64,000 bases of DNA from NCBI GenBank assembly GCA_964436855.1, contig CAYTED010000004.1, positions 67,627 through 131,626 of the forward strand, read 5' to 3'. A program made the translations under genes and the position numbers. This document shows positions 2,897-12,821 of this stretch, piece after piece. The notes beneath the pieces were generated by a model. It was not told where the DNA came from, did no database searches, and saw nothing but the letters and a program-made list of their open reading frames with translations. The number at the start of each line of letters is the position of its first letter. Positions within the stretch are counted from its first letter, which is position 1. Origin of the DNA: an uncultured Bdellovibrionales bacterium. GTDB taxonomy: Bacteria > Patescibacteriota > Minisyncoccia > Moranbacterales > UBA1568.

Positions 2897-3553
2897 TTAT
2901 AATATCTCAGTCAGCTTCTTTATAATAAACATTAATTCCTTATAAATCCTAATATCTGAATACGTAACACTTACACAGCCCTGATAATTTTCTTTTTTAT
3001 TTTTTCCAGAGTTTTTCTTTTGGTATGACTTATGAAATTGCTCAACAGGAATACTTGTTACAGCTGACCAAAATCTAACCTGCTCTTCAATATTATGATA
3101 CTCATGCACATGAACAAGCGCTCTAAATTTTTTCTCGTCAAGATCAAAAGAGTCTCTAAACACTCGAAGGAAATATTTTATCATTACTGGATCCGCATTG
3201 ATAAAAGATACCGAAGCATTGCCATTATACTTTGACCCCTCACCCCAATAGAGCAACGCGCACGCAATACGAGAATCAATTCTCTGAGATCGAGAAGTAA
3301 AATATTCTTCTACTTTTCTTGCTATTTCCACATCCTCTGCTACTCTCTTTGCTTTATTTGTTTCAACCGCCTTCTTTCGTCCATTGACACCCAAATCACG
3401 TATCCTCTTCTGAGCTTTTCTTGATAACTTTACATCTCTCAACCACAAGCTTGTCGTGCTTTTTGCAATGCCCAACTGATCGCTTATCTCTCGAAAAGAA
3501 TATCCCTGTTTGCGAAGGGCGATCGCTTTCTTCTTTTCACTTCTTTCAAACAT
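2897..3553 (-). CDS. HTH-domain protein with a LAGLIDADG-like motif (putative homing-endonuclease-type nuclease); AT-rich insertion
   Basis: N-terminal helix-turn-helix (GYSFREISDQLGIAKSTTSLWLRD). Central LLYWGEGSKYNG resembles a LAGLIDADG endonuclease block. The gene is clearly more AT-rich than the flanks and lies between tRNA-Trp and rpmG. Confidence 0.4.
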   Translation of the reverse strand: MFERSEKKKAIALRKQGYSFREISDQLGIAKSTTSLWLRDVKLSRKAQKRIRDLGVNGRKKAVETNKAKRVAEDVEIARKVEEYFTSRSQRIDSRIACALLYWGEGSKYNGNASVSFINADPVMIKYFLRVFRDSFDLDEKKFRALVHVHEYHNIEEQVRFWSAVTSIPVEQFHKSYQKKNSGKNKKENYQGCVSVTYSDIRIYKELMFIIKKLTEIL

Positions 3554-3609: not shown

Positions 3610-3750
3610 TTATTTCCCCTCCGTATGAGTCGTGTGCTTCTTGCAAAATTTGCAATGCTTTTTCAGTTCGAGCTTTTCCTTCACCTTTTTCTTGTTGCGC
3701 TGGGTATAGTAAGTAATCCGACCACATTCGGAACACTTCATCTTCGCCAT
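3610..3750 (-). CDS. rpmG: 50S ribosomal protein L33
   Basis: MAKMKCSECGRITYYTQRNKKKVKEKLELKKHCKFCKKHTTHTEGK matches the L33 zinc-ribbon pattern (C-x2-C ... C-x2-C, KLELKKxC). The ORF track extends to 3891, but that N-terminal extension is implausible. Confidence 0.85.
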   Translation of the reverse strand: MAKMKCSECGRITYYTQRNKKKVKEKLELKKHCKFCKKHTTHTEGK

Positions 3751-3868
3751 ATTGTCTTTAATCTGTCCCATAGTATTCTCTCTCGATAAATTCAATAACT
3801 CCGGCATTGTACGGAAAAAAATCTTTTTCGTCAACCGCCCATCGATCTTTCCAAAAAATACACCAACT

Positions 3869-3887
3869 TGAGCCGTTGACCGGGATT
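3869..3887. repeat. 19-nt direct repeat of the 3' end of tRNA-Thr(GGT) (tgagccgttgaccgggatt); second copy at 4048-4066 inside the tRNA
   Basis: Exact 19/19 match seen in the sequence. The upstream copy lacks the rest of the tRNA. Confidence 0.85.
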
Positions 3888-3893
3888 TCACAT

Positions 3894-3909
3894 CTCCGCC
3901 AACTGGCGG
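3894..3909. promoter_or_regulatory. Perfect palindrome TCCGCCA-AC-TGGCGGA upstream of rpmG; near-identical copy at 19662-19677
   Basis: 7-bp inverted half-sites with a 2-nt spacer. The second copy has one mismatch (TGGCAGA) and lies about 70 nt upstream of the VirD4-like gene. Confidence 0.4.
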
Positions 3910-4049
3910 ATCTTCATAGGGCTTCCGCCCTCTGACGCTTCGCTGTCACCCCAAACGGGAAACTTCCGTTTCCCGACCCCTTCCCCGTTCAATCCCATCC
4001 ATCCCCTTTGCTTGGTATTGCCACATTCACTATCCATTTCATTCTTCTG

Positions 4050-4122
4050 AGCCGTTGACCGGGATTGAACCGGTGACCTCGTCATTACCAATGACGTGCT
4101 CTACCAACTGAGCTACAACGGC
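4050..4122 (-). tRNA. tRNA-Thr (anticodon GGT)
   Basis: Manual cloverleaf: acceptor GCCGTTG/CAACGGC, anticodon stem CGTCA/TGACG, loop TTGGTAA, T-arm ACCGG-TTCAATC-CCGGT. Confidence 0.8.
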
Positions 4123-4149: not shown

Positions 4150-4374
4150 TTAATAAATCGTCGCTGAACCAGATTTCAAAAATTTCTCTCTCCCAAGGGC
4201 ATCAAATGTATTTCGGTACATTTCACAATAAATAATTCGCCAACTACCCTCTATCTTTTTTGTATAAGCAGACTTCTTGTGATTGTGTTTATGCAACCTT
4301 CTATTGATATCAGTAGTAAATCCACTATACCAACTTTGATTCAATAAATTTTCCAAAATGTAAACGTAATACAT
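4150..4374 (-). CDS. GIY-YIG nuclease superfamily protein (YhbQ/UPF0213-like)
   Basis: YYVYILE...WYSGFTTDINRRLHKHN matches the GIY-YIG core. Small AT-rich gene inserted between tRNA-Tyr and tRNA-Thr. Confidence 0.65.
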   Translation of the reverse strand: MYYVYILENLLNQSWYSGFTTDINRRLHKHNHKKSAYTKKIEGSWRIIYCEMYRNTFDALGREKFLKSGSATIY

Positions 4375-4798: not shown

Positions 4799-5653
4799 CT
4801 ACCCGCGCTCCTCGATCATCCGTTCAAGTCGACGAATCTTCATTTTCACGGAACGATGCACCGGGGAGAGCTTGAGCACCTGTTTATAACAAGACTTCGC
4901 GTCATTTACATTTCCCATCTCGAGATAGAAGTCTCCAAGCGCTTCATACGCCGACACGCTTTTCGGATTGGCGGCAATTTTTTTGATCAACGCGTTTTCT
5001 CGAAGCGCATTTTCGCGATCACGCTCACGCTTCTGTTCAAGTTCCTCGGGAACCGCCGCCGCCTCCGTTACCATCGGGCGCGAAGAAGTCGCCTCCGTGT
5101 CCGTTTGCGTTTCTTTTGGTACCGTATCCGGCAAAGCGGTAGAACGATCAACCGGCGATGCAGCCGAAGTCTCCGGATGCGTATTTTCGCTTTGAAGATA
5201 CGACTCGAGACTTTTTGAATCCACCTCCTCGAGTTTTTCCTCCGTTAATTTCCTTCGGCGCGCAAAAAACGGAAAAGCTGTTTGTTCTTTTTGAGGAAGT
5301 TTTTTTTCTGCAGGCACATCGCTTGACCCCGCCTGTTCCCTCGTAGGCTCTGTCGTTTCGATCTTTCGCTCAAGGAGACTCTTCCGTTTTCGTTTGATCC
5401 CCTGACTCGCGGAATGAAACGCATTATGCGCCCGGAGCGAAAGCACTTTGAGCACGTGTGTCGCCCGATCCAAAAACTGAAGTCCGTACTGACGAATCAC
5501 CCGAAGAATCGCCGATCCGGATTCGTCGGAACGACGCGAAAGTGATTCCATACGCTCAAGAACGGACGGTTCCGAGGCTCTCTTTGCGAGAAACCAAACA
5601 AGAAACGCCATCAAGAGAACGACAATAAAAGGAGGCGCGATAAGATACCACAT
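4799..5653 (-). CDS. Membrane-anchored protein with C-terminal TPR-like repeat
   Basis: ORF track 4799..5776. Start moved to the MWYL ATG after the tsf stop. One TM helix (LIAPPFIVVLLMAFLVWFL), and a C-terminal TPR-like AYEALGDFYLEMGNVNDAKSCYKQVLKLSP. Confidence 0.5.
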   Translation of the reverse strand: MWYLIAPPFIVVLLMAFLVWFLAKRASEPSVLERMESLSRRSDESGSAILRVIRQYGLQFLDRATHVLKVLSLRAHNAFHSASQGIKRKRKSLLERKIETTEPTREQAGSSDVPAEKKLPQKEQTAFPFFARRRKLTEEKLEEVDSKSLESYLQSENTHPETSAASPVDRSTALPDTVPKETQTDTEATSSRPMVTEAAAVPEELEQKRERDRENALRENALIKKIAANPKSVSAYEALGDFYLEMGNVNDAKSCYKQVLKLSPVHRSVKMKIRRLERMIEERG

Positions 5654-10976: not shown

Positions 10977-12404
10977 TCAAAACTCTACCGAATCACCAAG
11001 GTGAATATCGGCGGCCTCCCCGCCGTTTACCTCAAGCACCGAATCCGCGTTGATCGAAGGACCAAACGAGTCGGTTCGTTCCGGGGAAATATTTCGTTCG
11101 ATATATATAACCGTTCCGTTTCGAATCCACACAATATCAAGCGGAAACTCCATTCCCTTCATCCAAAATTGATACGGGAAAGCTTCCGAAAACAAAAAGA
11201 GCATTCCTGTGCCGGGAGCAAGTGTCGCGCGATATCCAAGCCCTCGTTCCGGTTCGGATGGATCATCGGCAACCTCAACACTCCACACGTGCTCCCGAAT
11301 ACGAATTTCTTTTTCAGTATTTCGAACTCCAAAGAAAAAGAAAAAAGAAAGTAACACTATGCCAACTATGAGGAAAAACAGGCTTCGACTTTTTGATCGC
11401 TTACGACGTTCTTGAAAAAGAAAAAGGAGAAAAAACAACACCGCCACCGATAAAAAGGCCACCACCTTATACCGAGTCGAAAACGATACGGCAAACAAAG
11501 CGACAAGAAGCGTGATCCCGGTCAGAGCGATAAAAATACGCCGCATCGTCCACCCGGCTTCCAAAAGTGAAAAATGAAAATGTCGCCGATCGGCCTGAAA
11601 AAGAGAATCCCCCGAAAAAAGCCTCTTCAGAAGCACGATCGCCGCATCCAGTACCGGAAAGGATAAGATAAGAAGGGTGGTCGCTATTTTTGAACCGGCA
11701 AAAATAGAAATCGTGGCGAGTGAAAAACCAACGAACATCGATCCGGTTGTTCCGGCAAGTATGCGAGCAGGAGGGGCATTCAAGAGAAGAAATCCAAAAA
11801 CGGAACCGGCAAGCGCGGCGGCGAGAATGGCAACCGGCGGCTGATTGACTTCCGGCCGAAGACTGACAAAGAAAACAGCACCCGCAGCGATCACTCCAAC
11901 ACTTCCAAGCAGTCCATCGGCGCCATCAAGCCAATTGACCGAATTCATAATAACGAGAAACCAGAAAAGCGTTACCGAAAAAGAAAGGAGAAAGTACTCC
12001 GAACTCGGAAATGAAATCGTCCCTCCTCCGAAAGGATTGGTGATATATTCGATACGAACGAGAAAGAGATAGGAAAGAATGGCGATTCCAAACTGAAAAA
12101 GCATCTGTGTTTTCCAATCAAGCTCGGAAAAATCATCAAACAAACCAAATACGAGAATAAGCCCGCCGGCAAGAAACATCCCCATAATCGGCTTTGTCAA
12201 AACAAGAGCGGGATGAAACGCAATGACGAGAAAAAAAGCGGCGATTATCGCCACTCCCCCCAACCGCGAAAGAGTTCCATTTCCAATATGTCGCTTCCCG
12301 ACACGCCCTCGAAAATATTTTCCCGGTAACAACGAAAAAAAGAGGGAGAGGGAGAGGGAAATGCCGAGAGCGGCAAAGAAGGGAATGAGATAGAGGTAAA
12401 CCAT
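10977..12404 (-). CDS. WecA/MraY-family polyprenyl-phosphate N-acetylhexosamine-1-phosphate transferase fused to a C-terminal DUF192 domain
   Basis: About 10 TM helices, NSVNWLDGADGL (MraY/WecA signature) and FDDFSELD. The C-terminal 110 aa (GYRATLAPGTGMLFLFSEAFPYQFWMKGMEFPLDIVWI) matches DUF192 (COG1430). Confidence 0.7.
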   Translation of the reverse strand: MVYLYLIPFFAALGISLSLSLFFSLLPGKYFRGRVGKRHIGNGTLSRLGGVAIIAAFFLVIAFHPALVLTKPIMGMFLAGGLILVFGLFDDFSELDWKTQMLFQFGIAILSYLFLVRIEYITNPFGGGTISFPSSEYFLLSFSVTLFWFLVIMNSVNWLDGADGLLGSVGVIAAGAVFFVSLRPEVNQPPVAILAAALAGSVFGFLLLNAPPARILAGTTGSMFVGFSLATISIFAGSKIATTLLILSFPVLDAAIVLLKRLFSGDSLFQADRRHFHFSLLEAGWTMRRIFIALTGITLLVALFAVSFSTRYKVVAFLSVAVLFFLLFLFQERRKRSKSRSLFFLIVGIVLLSFFFFFGVRNTEKEIRIREHVWSVEVADDPSEPERGLGYRATLAPGTGMLFLFSEAFPYQFWMKGMEFPLDIVWIRNGTVIYIERNISPERTDSFGPSINADSVLEVNGGEAADIHLGDSVEF

Positions 12405-12407
12405 ATA

Positions 12408-12821
12408 CTAATAGTTCACAAGCGCCACCGCTCCGGCGGCAAGCGCCACCATCGCCTCAAGAAGAACGAGAGAAAGGAGTACACCGAATGAAAGCACCTT
12501 TTCCCGAAGAAAGACGAAAAGATAACGTGAGAGCATTGTATGCAATAAGAAAAACAACAATCCAACAAACGGGACAAAATACGCCTCCCACCATTCCCCG
12601 ATAACATCGACACCGAAATAAACATTGTAATGAAGCACAACCGGTGTCTCCCGTTTTCCAACAAAATACCATAATATTCCAAACGAAATGAGAAGCAAAA
12701 ACGCGCTGACCCCAAGCAAAGTTCTCACCATACCATTCTTCCAAAAACTCGGATCGGAAAGAAAAATATCTTCATTTTCCTTCAATTGATTGTGTATGGC
12801 GAGTTTCATAATCAAAATCAC
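12408..12821 (-). CDS. Hypothetical integral membrane protein (3-4 TM)
   Basis: Hydrophobic segments. Translationally coupled between rmuC and the WecA-like gene. Confidence 0.45.
   Translation of the reverse strand: MILIMKLAIHNQLKENEDIFLSDPSFWKNGMVRTLLGVSAFLLLISFGILWYFVGKRETPVVLHYNVYFGVDVIGEWWEAYFVPFVGLLFFLLHTMLSRYLFVFLREKVLSFGVLLSLVLLEAMVALAAGAVALVNY

Follow-up and report, generated by a model that had tools for sequence, protein, structure and literature searches.

A small structured element with tRNA-matching arms that recurs behind tRNA genes of Patescibacteria

What has placed a second, exact copy of the last nucleotides of a tRNA gene a short distance behind that gene, at a point where no other tRNA is found? 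The question is raised by the intact tRNA-Thr(GGT) gene of an uncultured Patescibacteria bacterium, located in a stretch of 64,000 nucleotides (nt) that was analysed as a whole and is referred to below as the window (contig CAYTED010000004.1 of assembly GCA_964436855.1, positions 67,627 to 131,626). The initial annotation had described the repeat as a scar resembling an attachment (att) site, left by an integrase, and had suggested either a decayed or excised element or a tiny non-autonomous one. The last of these suggestions comes closest to the data. We found that the downstream copy forms the 3' arm of a unit of ~125 bases, relatives of which lie behind many other genes, and we consider this unit, with a probability of roughly 0.55, to be a non-autonomous, structure-dependent insertion element, in which a structured core is the sole heritable part and the arms are written from the target. 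The element is described throughout as read on the minus strand, i.e. in tRNA sense, and the L-numbers (L006, L123, etc.) are labels of the compared loci or contigs.

The tRNA-end copy and the insertion that it bounds

An exact-repeat search showed that the 19-nt sequence TGAGCCGTTGACCGGGATT has exactly two occurrences in the 64-kb window, one at the end of the tRNA gene (X1, Table 1) and one at 3869-3887. The repeat is not a chance match: with up to three mismatches allowed, two or more matches were obtained in 0 of 100 shuffles, and the expected count was 0.02. The tRNA likeness of the second copy reaches 4 nt beyond the 19-mer (GTGAAATCCC compared with GTTCAATCCC), and the sole difference within this extended match is a change of TC to GA at tRNA positions 55-56. 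As claimed earlier, no other tRNA sequence surrounds the second copy; a second tRNA or a tRNA pseudogene as the source of the repeat was ruled out, since neither ARAGORN nor Rfam (at E ≤ 10) reported one around 3869-3887. The 160 nt between the two copies were searched against the Rfam covariance models, as had been proposed, and no family was found at E ≤ 10. This insert contains no real open reading frame (ORF), no integrase is present nearby, and both of the hairpins pointed out in it, GGGAAAC/GTTTCCC and CCGCCA/TGGCGG, exist (P2 and P5 in Table 1). Two other sequencing runs (samples SRR30303844 and SRR12229868) independently yielded assemblies with this very arrangement, so that an assembly artefact is excluded.

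The nearest relatives with respect to Tsf, at no more than 71% identity, are metagenome-assembled genomes (MAGs) of Candidatus Moraniibacteriota, a group of Patescibacteria or candidate phyla radiation (CPR) bacteria. These relatives keep the gene order tsf, X, tRNA-Thr(TGT), tRNA-Tyr, tRNA-Thr(GGT), rpmG, tRNA-Trp and tRNA-Glu. The orthologous site is empty in L016, L004 and L005, and filled in L006 and L137. In the relatives with an empty site tRNA-Thr(GGT) directly abuts the rpmG promoter, the rpmG ATG being located at +71 (L016), +71 (L004) and +92 (L005) after the tRNA end, compared with +277 in the window and +249 in L006. In the window, the sequence past the second repeat copy shows homology to L005, namely to its tRNA trailer and promoter (p = 0.0015). 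It follows from the empty sites and from this homology that ~180 nt were gained between the body of the tRNA and the trailer that originally adjoined it. What stands of the att-site-like scar is thus a true insertion flanked by a duplicated tRNA 3' end, the repeat starting in the T-loop; its attribution to an integrase does not stand. A decayed or excised integrase element is contradicted by the conserved ~125-nt unit that recurs behind many genes.

Two further observations concern these orthologous loci. The tRNA-Thr(GGT) site of L005 (11964-12000), counted here as empty, has 21 nt more than that of L016, including GGTTCAAT, an 8-nt match to the tRNA T-arm, and these additional nucleotides may be the footprint of a lost element. 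In L004, a divergent variant of the element with arms copying the tRNA-Tyr end is located after tRNA-Tyr (11683-11815), and the segment directly following it, comprising tRNA-Thr(GGT), rpmG, tRNA-Trp and tRNA-Glu (11939-12455), is inverted with respect to all other Moraniibacteriota loci. This inversion may have been mediated by the inverted target copies of the element.

A family with a common folded core

Comparison of the insert with the relatives' loci by blastn revealed an 82% identical copy behind tRNA-Thr(GGT) of L006, which ends in the exact 19-nt copy of the tRNA end, as well as related copies behind tRNA-Glu in L006 and L016, which end in a copy of the tRNA-Glu 3' end. The conservation between the window and L006 begins at GGGATTGAAC; the 52-58 nt adjoining the tRNA, i.e. 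the spacer, are unrelated in the two loci (58 nt in L006). Based on three conserved blocks of the core, a search pattern was constructed and scanned on metagenome contigs. It matched at least 120 stretches, and at least 88 distinct, non-redundant elements remained after chance GC-rich matches and duplicates had been dropped. The invariance of GGGGTCGGG, GGGGTGAC and AGAGGG(Y)GGAA was imposed by the search and the filter that required them; the covariation and the conservation of CCCUAU and of the P2 stem were not.

Every member of the family has the same layout: the end of the upstream gene (X1), a spacer, an antisense 5' arm (T'), a short purine-rich linker, a conserved and covarying core of ~100 nt, and a sense 3' arm (X2). 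At tRNA genes, T' corresponds to tRNA positions ~53-65, and X2 extends from the T-loop to slightly beyond the 3' end of the tRNA. In most members a terminator hairpin occupies the position of the spacer; the window spacer contains no terminator-like site. This spacer was also considered as a copy of the trailer, and the similarity was not significant (p = 0.75 and 0.13).

Among the cells of the alignment made with the covariance model (93 distinct sequences), 98.1% are paired, as compared with 90.9% in shuffles. Double changes occur in 12 of 18 pairs, a number that was reached in 0 of 500 shuffles and that slid controls (at most 5) did not approach. They affect all eight pairs of P4, the family consensus of which is C-N-A-G-A-GGGC-GGAA-GCCC-U-A-U-N'-G; its second pair is AU in 30 sequences, UA in 28, CG in 26 and GC in 7, with one sequence unpaired. 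In P2 the pair counts are, e.g., GC40/AU31/GU11 and AU50/CG24, and over the alignment G-U pairs are common and A-C pairs rare. The variable P3 segments fold better than their shuffles (mean z of -2.1), and many P3 stems contain tandem G.A modules. In 81 of 84 elements, folding is more stable for the tRNA-sense strand than for its complement (-64.4 versus -56.3 kcal/mol), and therefore the structure belongs to this strand, either as RNA or as single-stranded DNA (ssDNA). Mini-hairpins of the GCGAAGC type, which are very stable in DNA, were found in 21 of 87 elements.

In the window element, the core comprises, in order, GGGGUC, P2, GGGGUGAC, the variable P3 and P4 with its GGAA loop, and it is followed by the variable P5, a type of hairpin also present in copy 2 of L006, in L016 and in L114. 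T' matches the antisense of CCGGTTCAATCCC at 12 of 13 positions and forms an inverted repeat with the tRNA. In the predicted fold, GGGAUU of T' pairs with AAUCCC of X2, followed by a tandem G.A/A.G and by the pairs A-U and C-G; this terminal stem was named P1. The 13-nt tail of X2, which corresponds to the acceptor strand, is left unpaired, yet it is identical to the tRNA both in the window and in L006. The last 19 nt of X2 are the second repeat copy, the TC to GA change being located just before it, and all 19 are kept in a pair of elements whose cores have diverged by 18% (0.82^19 = 0.02). A separate observation is that AAUACCAA in the spacer (4008-4018) is nearly complementary to UUGGUGUAUU (3853-3866, minus strand) immediately after X2. 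The two could form an outer stem round the whole element; this stem is present solely in the single-sequence fold and may be due to chance.

A covariance model of the core (R1) recognised one copy in the window (the next best score was 11 bits), and neither blastn nor nhmmer nor R1 run with the filters off detected a further one there. When R1 was applied to 1.26 Mb of genome loci, mostly of non-CPR origin, matches were obtained exclusively in loci of MAGs labelled Moraniibacteriota or Patescibacteria, i.e. twice in L006, once in L016, and as weak, divergent variants in L017 and L004. All taxonomically labelled instances of the family belong to Patescibacteria. The core pattern was absent from viral contigs, which also contained no exact attP-like match, and BLAST of the element against phage and plasmid collections gave no match. 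Rfam 15 reported nothing overlapping 3869-4048 (E ≤ 10) and nothing overlapping the element in 18 other loci (E ≤ 1), so that known RNA families, including tRNA, transfer-messenger RNA (tmRNA), self-cleaving ribozymes, HEARO and parts of group I or group II introns, were ruled out. None of the hepatitis delta virus-like, twister, group I and group II folds fits the element, as judged by eye and consistent with the negative Rfam result.

Some loci carry a subtype, termed here type B (L017, 7393-7515; L128, ~1440-1566; L112, ~1620-1760). Its 5' half, with the GGGGUCGGGAAAAC hairpin, is common to the family, and its 3' half differs, consisting of GGUGGAAG, UGAAACCGCAAGGUUUCA and AGAG. The L017 copy directly follows the stop codon of rpsI (S9), and the L128 copy lies after the same kind of gene end, as judged by the C-terminal coding sequence alone. 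In L112 the type B copy is nested or in tandem with a type A copy, and flanked by a 36-nt repeat.

Targets and arms

Upstream sequence of 200 nt or more was available for 71 elements, of which 57 are preceded by a tRNA or tmRNA gene of the same strand that ends no more than 260 nt upstream, and none (0/71) has only an opposite-strand tRNA or tmRNA gene there. The upstream genes cover 17 amino-acid types and tmRNA. Placements behind other genes include those after the 3' ends of rpsI (L017, L128) and rpmG (L134). The upstream gene is always intact, and the element always has the same orientation. The tmRNA gene (ssrA) is a recurrent target (L110, L175 and L084), at which the repeat copies the tRNA-like 3' end, over 24 nt in L084. 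In L134 (2500-2765) the element is located inside the rpmG 3' end, the last ~50 nt of the coding sequence being duplicated; the upstream rpmG copy keeps the reading frame, and the downstream copy is diverged by ~15%.

A partner that could mobilise these elements was sought among their neighbours. No protein family was enriched within 3 kb of the 88 elements listed, and none of these loci contained an autonomous partner; all-against-all clustering of 556 neighbouring ORFs returned syntenic housekeeping genes only. In the window, Pfam identified no integrase, transposase or reverse transcriptase (RT) in 16 ORFs (the flanking ones and ten others), and no YxDD motif occurs among 53 ORFs.

Over the whole family, the exact repeats measure 15-27 nt, and their start lies in the T-loop, 14-21 nt from the tRNA end. 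The duplication is 12-82 nt long, with its left end in the T-loop and a variable right end. Arm profiles computed over 49 tRNA-linked elements showed that X2 matches the local tRNA at 0.79-1.0, mostly at ≥0.85, over positions 60-74, with a match of only 0.3 at positions 55-56, where TC has typically become GA. For T', agreement with the antisense of positions 53-62 amounted to 0.8-0.98, with 0.96 and 0.90 at the variable positions 59 and 60, respectively; this agreement fades within the acceptor strand and falls off abruptly at position 52. The pairing of T' with X2 has a mean energy of -21.4 kcal/mol, compared with -16.0 for shuffled arms, and closes the core as stem P1. At the former T-loop, P1 contains a tandem G.A/A.G module (5'-CGAAC with 5'-GUGAG), which recurs in P3; in some elements both arms are changed, giving GAGA/GAGA.

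The relation between the core and the arms is best illustrated by L123, in which two elements are situated 1 kb apart, behind tRNA-Tyr and tRNA-Glu. Their cores are 99% identical over exactly 103 nt; in their arms and spacers the two elements have nothing in common, and either set of arms fits the tRNA gene in front of it. Near-identical cores with arms for different tRNAs are not accounted for by a fixed attP. On the reverse strand of L123, at ~4980-5070, downstream of the tRNA-Tyr element, there are two more degenerate copies of the tRNA-Tyr 3' end, GACCGAATCCCTCTCTGC and CTGTTCAATCCCTCCCTTC, which may be footprints of earlier insertions or losses. In the copies not linked to a tRNA (L100, L116 and L134), the arms are built from their own local sequence.

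The right end of the repeat indicates what was copied. The repeat runs on into the genomic trailer and not into CCA; therefore, it was copied from DNA or from a primary transcript, and copying from a mature tRNA is ruled out. Some elements have long, little-diverged repeats of 50-80 nt that extend through the trailer, and these are taken as young. In L163 and L135 the repeat ends at the T-run of the terminator. In the long-repeat copies, X1, T' and the sequence between them make up a long palindrome with the terminator hairpin at its centre; it is perfect in L100 (...ATGTTTT|AAAACAT...), and in L134 the fold-back matches at 18 of 18 positions, starting with TTTTT opposite AAAAA. The TC to GA change is already present in long-repeat copies, and L135 has a T' whose T-loop part does not match the tRNA of that locus. 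Both features point to T-loop-like termini that move together with the core, and to junctions with the target-derived sequence at about position 58/59 on both sides.

The features of the window element and its surroundings are collected in Table 1. The neighbouring genes encode L33, an HTH_23 protein, a GIY-YIG protein, a TPR protein, Tsf and S2. Two of these neighbours deserve a separate mention. An ORF of 218 amino acids (2897-3553, minus strand) with an N-terminal HTH_23 domain, a helix-turn-helix of the resolvase/transposase type, and a C-terminal part without assignment is located between rpmG and tRNA-Trp, and exactly this protein is present in two Logan contigs. In most relatives the interval from tRNA-Thr(GGT) to tRNA-Trp holds just rpmG and short spacers, ~220-510 nt in total, and the ORF therefore looks like a separate insertion, possibly of a homing-endonuclease-like gene. 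Inside the tRNA cluster, between tRNA-Tyr and tRNA-Thr(GGT), there is a 74-amino-acid ORF (4150-4374, minus strand) that constitutes a stand-alone GIY-YIG nuclease domain; no exact match to this protein was found in the gene-position collection.

Table 1. Coordinates of the element behind tRNA-Thr(GGT) and of adjoining features in the window
Feature	Position	Strand	Remarks
tRNA-Thr(GGT), intact	4049-4122 (ARAGORN); 4050-4122 (Rfam tRNA, 72.3 bits)	minus	
X1 (upstream repeat copy)	4048-4066	minus	tRNA positions ~57-73 and 2 trailer bases
Spacer between tRNA and element, ~52 nt	3997-4047	minus	unconserved
Whole element	3996 down to 3869	minus	~125-base unit
T' (5' arm), GGGATTGAACGGG (= GGGAUUGAACGGG)	3984-3996	minus	antisense of tRNA T-loop and T-stem
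Core	3910-3987	minus	sole covariance-model match in the window, 78 bits
P2 hairpin, GGGAAAC-GGAA-GUUUCCC	3957-3974	minus	
P3 variable hairpin, GACAGCGAAGCGUC	3934-3947	minus	includes GCGAAGC mini-hairpin
P4 hairpin, UCAGA-GGGC-GGAA-GCCC-UAUGA	3914-3935	minus	best-conserved part of the family
P5 variable hairpin, CCGCC-AGUU-GGCGG	3896-3909	minus	
X2 (3' arm), GUGAAAUCCCGGUCAACGGCUCA	3869-3891	minus	sense copy of tRNA positions 53-73 and 2 nt
rpmG promoter, TTGACG-17-TACAAT	3806-3834	minus	original trailer, flanking DNA outside the element
rpmG	3610-3771		Pfam Ribosomal_L33

Readings of the element and their meaning

Based on these observations, we infer that the core is what is copied, and that each insertion writes the arms anew from its target. 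As for the route, we favour a specific copy-choice mechanism, with considerably less confidence than the overall reading. Synthesis would start at the T/A-tract that ends a highly expressed gene or its terminated transcript, and the gene end would be copied back as far as the T-loop. There, a switch to a donor element would take place via the near-universal T-loop sequence, the antisense of which (UCGAAC) is the 5' terminus of the element. The core would be copied next, and the return to the target would occur by snap-back extension of the terminal stem. The product would contain a variable-length inverted copy (T') and a direct copy (X2), in the layout target, hairpin, T', core and X2. The enzyme acting in trans might be a reverse transcriptase or a replicative polymerase that recognises the conserved fold. 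Such a copy choice would explain the preference for abundant transcripts (tRNA, tmRNA, rpsI and rpmG), the palindromes at T-runs and the variable length of the repeat.

Several points weigh against this interpretation. The mechanism and the RNA form of the element are putative, and no candidate for a trans-acting enzyme was found near the 88 elements listed. The identical cores of L123 could stem from gene conversion rather than from recent copying. The rule that the repeat ends at a T-run holds for L163, L135, L100 and L134, but not for L116 or L187, and the window itself has a spacer without a hairpin and a repeat that stops 2 nt past the tRNA. The core owes some of its apparent invariance to the search pattern. 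Finally, the conserved fold, the GA-rich loop of P1 and the unpaired tail kept at 19 of 19 positions would fit an RNA useful to the host equally well.

The last point leads to the reading of the element as a cis-acting RNA domain, functional for the host, that belongs to the 3' trailers transcribed from tRNA, tmRNA and ribosomal-protein genes, which we regard as rather unlikely. It might be a switch of three parts, T' pairing with the T-arm of the tRNA itself in one state and with X2 in the other, or a minihelix that mimics the stack of acceptor and T-stem and recruits tRNA-processing enzymes; its spread among genes would then be ancient and mobility incidental. The covarying fold indeed lies on the transcribed, tRNA-sense strand, the placement is always co-oriented and 3' of highly expressed genes, the window has no terminator between the tRNA and the element, the GA/AG module, recurring in P1 and P3, looks selected, and the X2 tail is conserved. 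Moreover, the computed pairing of T' with the genuine tRNA 3' part is stronger than with X2 (-28.2 versus -21.9 kcal/mol; 46 loci versus 6), although this is largely due to the GA substitution in X2. A host function is, on the other hand, difficult to reconcile with the patchy presence of the element among close relatives, with the different tRNAs occupied in different genomes, and with the near-identical cores at two tRNAs in L123. Most copies lie behind a terminator hairpin, nested or tandem copies and decayed additional T-copies exist, and no plausible ligand or regulatory logic is common to tRNA, tmRNA, rpsI and rpmG.

Two recombination-based explanations seem to us less probable still. 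If the element were a folded ssDNA recombination site, the T':X2 stem would mimic the T-loop/T-stem duplex of a tRNA gene and be used by a host tyrosine recombinase, in a Campbell-type integration by which the element brings a replacement tRNA 3' end. The layout of tRNA, spacer, T', core, X2 and trailer is what a single strand exchange in the T-loop would produce, the junctions fall in the T-loop, a classical crossover site, and the mismatch of the stem at positions 55-56 recalls the unpaired centre of CTX attP; the structure is strand-specific, and the GCGAAGC-type mini-hairpins would suit a DNA fold. This model requires, however, that the arms and the spacer travel with the element, and it is precisely there that the two L123 elements differ completely. 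The stem has no counterpart of the 5' arm of the T-stem, and hence no second recombinase-binding half-site, the non-tRNA targets lack a T-loop-like sequence, no recombinase is linked to the elements listed or encoded by the window ORFs scanned, and the viral, phage and plasmid collections gave no matches, which makes the model improbable. The original idea of an attL/attR scar, i.e. the remnant of a larger integrase-mobilised island or prophage in tRNA-Thr, nearly all of which was deleted, accounts for a direct repeat of the tRNA 3' end starting in the T-loop and for relatives with empty sites. It does not account for a covarying core of ~100 nt that is found after no fewer than 17 other tRNA types and also after protein-coding genes, for the near-constant size, for the antisense arm that is always present, or for the lack of an integrase or cargo in any of the elements listed. 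As independent deletions could not converge on a common core, this explanation is highly improbable.

Returning to the insertion element with target-written arms, a bolder version of it is conceivable, though we consider it doubtful: a reprogrammable insertion element, i.e. a gene-less structured RNA or ssDNA of ~100 nt that gains a sense and an antisense copy of its target with each hop. Such an element would be able to base-pair with either strand at the 3' end of a strongly expressed gene, and would be either a new bacterial retro- or copy-choice class or a guide-like RNA for a trans-acting recombinase.

Comparison with known systems points to partial likenesses. With islands at tRNA or tmRNA att sites the element shares the direct repeat from the T-loop to the 3' end, the intact tRNA or tmRNA, and the empty sites of relatives. 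It differs from them in its size of ~125 nt, its covarying core, the additional antisense copy of the target, arms that vary between copies with the same core, and the use of protein-gene ends as targets; among the features of an att site, the direct repeat of the 3' segment is present, whereas a recombinase, cargo and an attP arm specific to element and target are lacking. Miniature inverted-repeat transposable elements (MITEs), repetitive extragenic palindromes (REPs) and REP doublets (REPINs) which are non-autonomous and mobilised in trans, are likewise small, protein-less, structured and intergenic; they are located after genes or terminators, and a genome contains several of them. The terminal inverted repeats of the element are, however, copied from the target rather than fixed, its orientation to the upstream gene is strict, and its duplication of 20-80 nt is variable in length with a defined left end in the T-loop. 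Fixed terminal inverted repeats with a partner and a fixed short target duplication, as in MITEs and REPINs, were not found.

The target-primed reverse transcription of short and long interspersed nuclear elements (SINEs and LINEs), with template switching and ‘twin priming’, resembles our case in its duplications of variable length, its chimeras with abundant cellular RNAs, the inversion of segments at one of the ends, and the use of homopolymer tracts for priming. The element is bacterial and has no poly(A), and no RT was found in the window ORFs scanned. This comparison serves as a working model. The integron attC sites used by IntI and the attP(+) of the CTX phage, used by XerCD, also combine imperfect inverted repeats round a structured spacer with a target-mimicking stem, central mismatches and a strand-specific structure. 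Here, in contrast, the inside is conserved and not variable, a second half-site and a linked recombinase are lacking, and the arms are re-specified for each target.

The bridge RNA of IS110 and the tigRNA of tandem interspaced guide RNA (TIGR)-Tas systems carry target-complementary and target-identical (top strand) segments in one RNA, as the element would; TIGR systems are common in CPR bacteria (PMC12045711). The two arms of the element differ in that they cover the same target positions and pair with each other. Membership in either system was ruled out, since there is no IS110 or Tas (Nop-domain) protein nearby and no 36-nt array, and the architecture described in PMC12045711 is different. 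A diversity-generating retroelement was ruled out as well: there is no RT nearby, the window repeat is identical, and the repeat differences in L134 are mixed transitions.

The literature search found no matching description in full text, and an earlier description elsewhere is possible. Judging by the present data, the family represents a tRNA-linked structured element of a new kind. CPR bacteria have tiny genomes with little room for junk. If our interpretation is correct, they nevertheless carry an abundant gene-less element, of a kind absent from Rfam and from the literature searched, which settles after genes for tRNA, tmRNA and ribosomal proteins, leaves these genes undamaged, and rewrites its own flanks for each host gene. 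This raises the question of what copies the ~100-nt core and writes a sense and an antisense copy of the target beside it. The answer may be a new template-switching route, an RNA-guided recombination system, or a regulatory RNA linked to tRNAs. There is also a practical consequence. Repeats of tRNA 3' ends are routinely used for calling genomic islands; in Patescibacteria, many of these repeats would turn out to be elements of the kind described here, and not islands, and the R1 covariance model can be used to annotate them.

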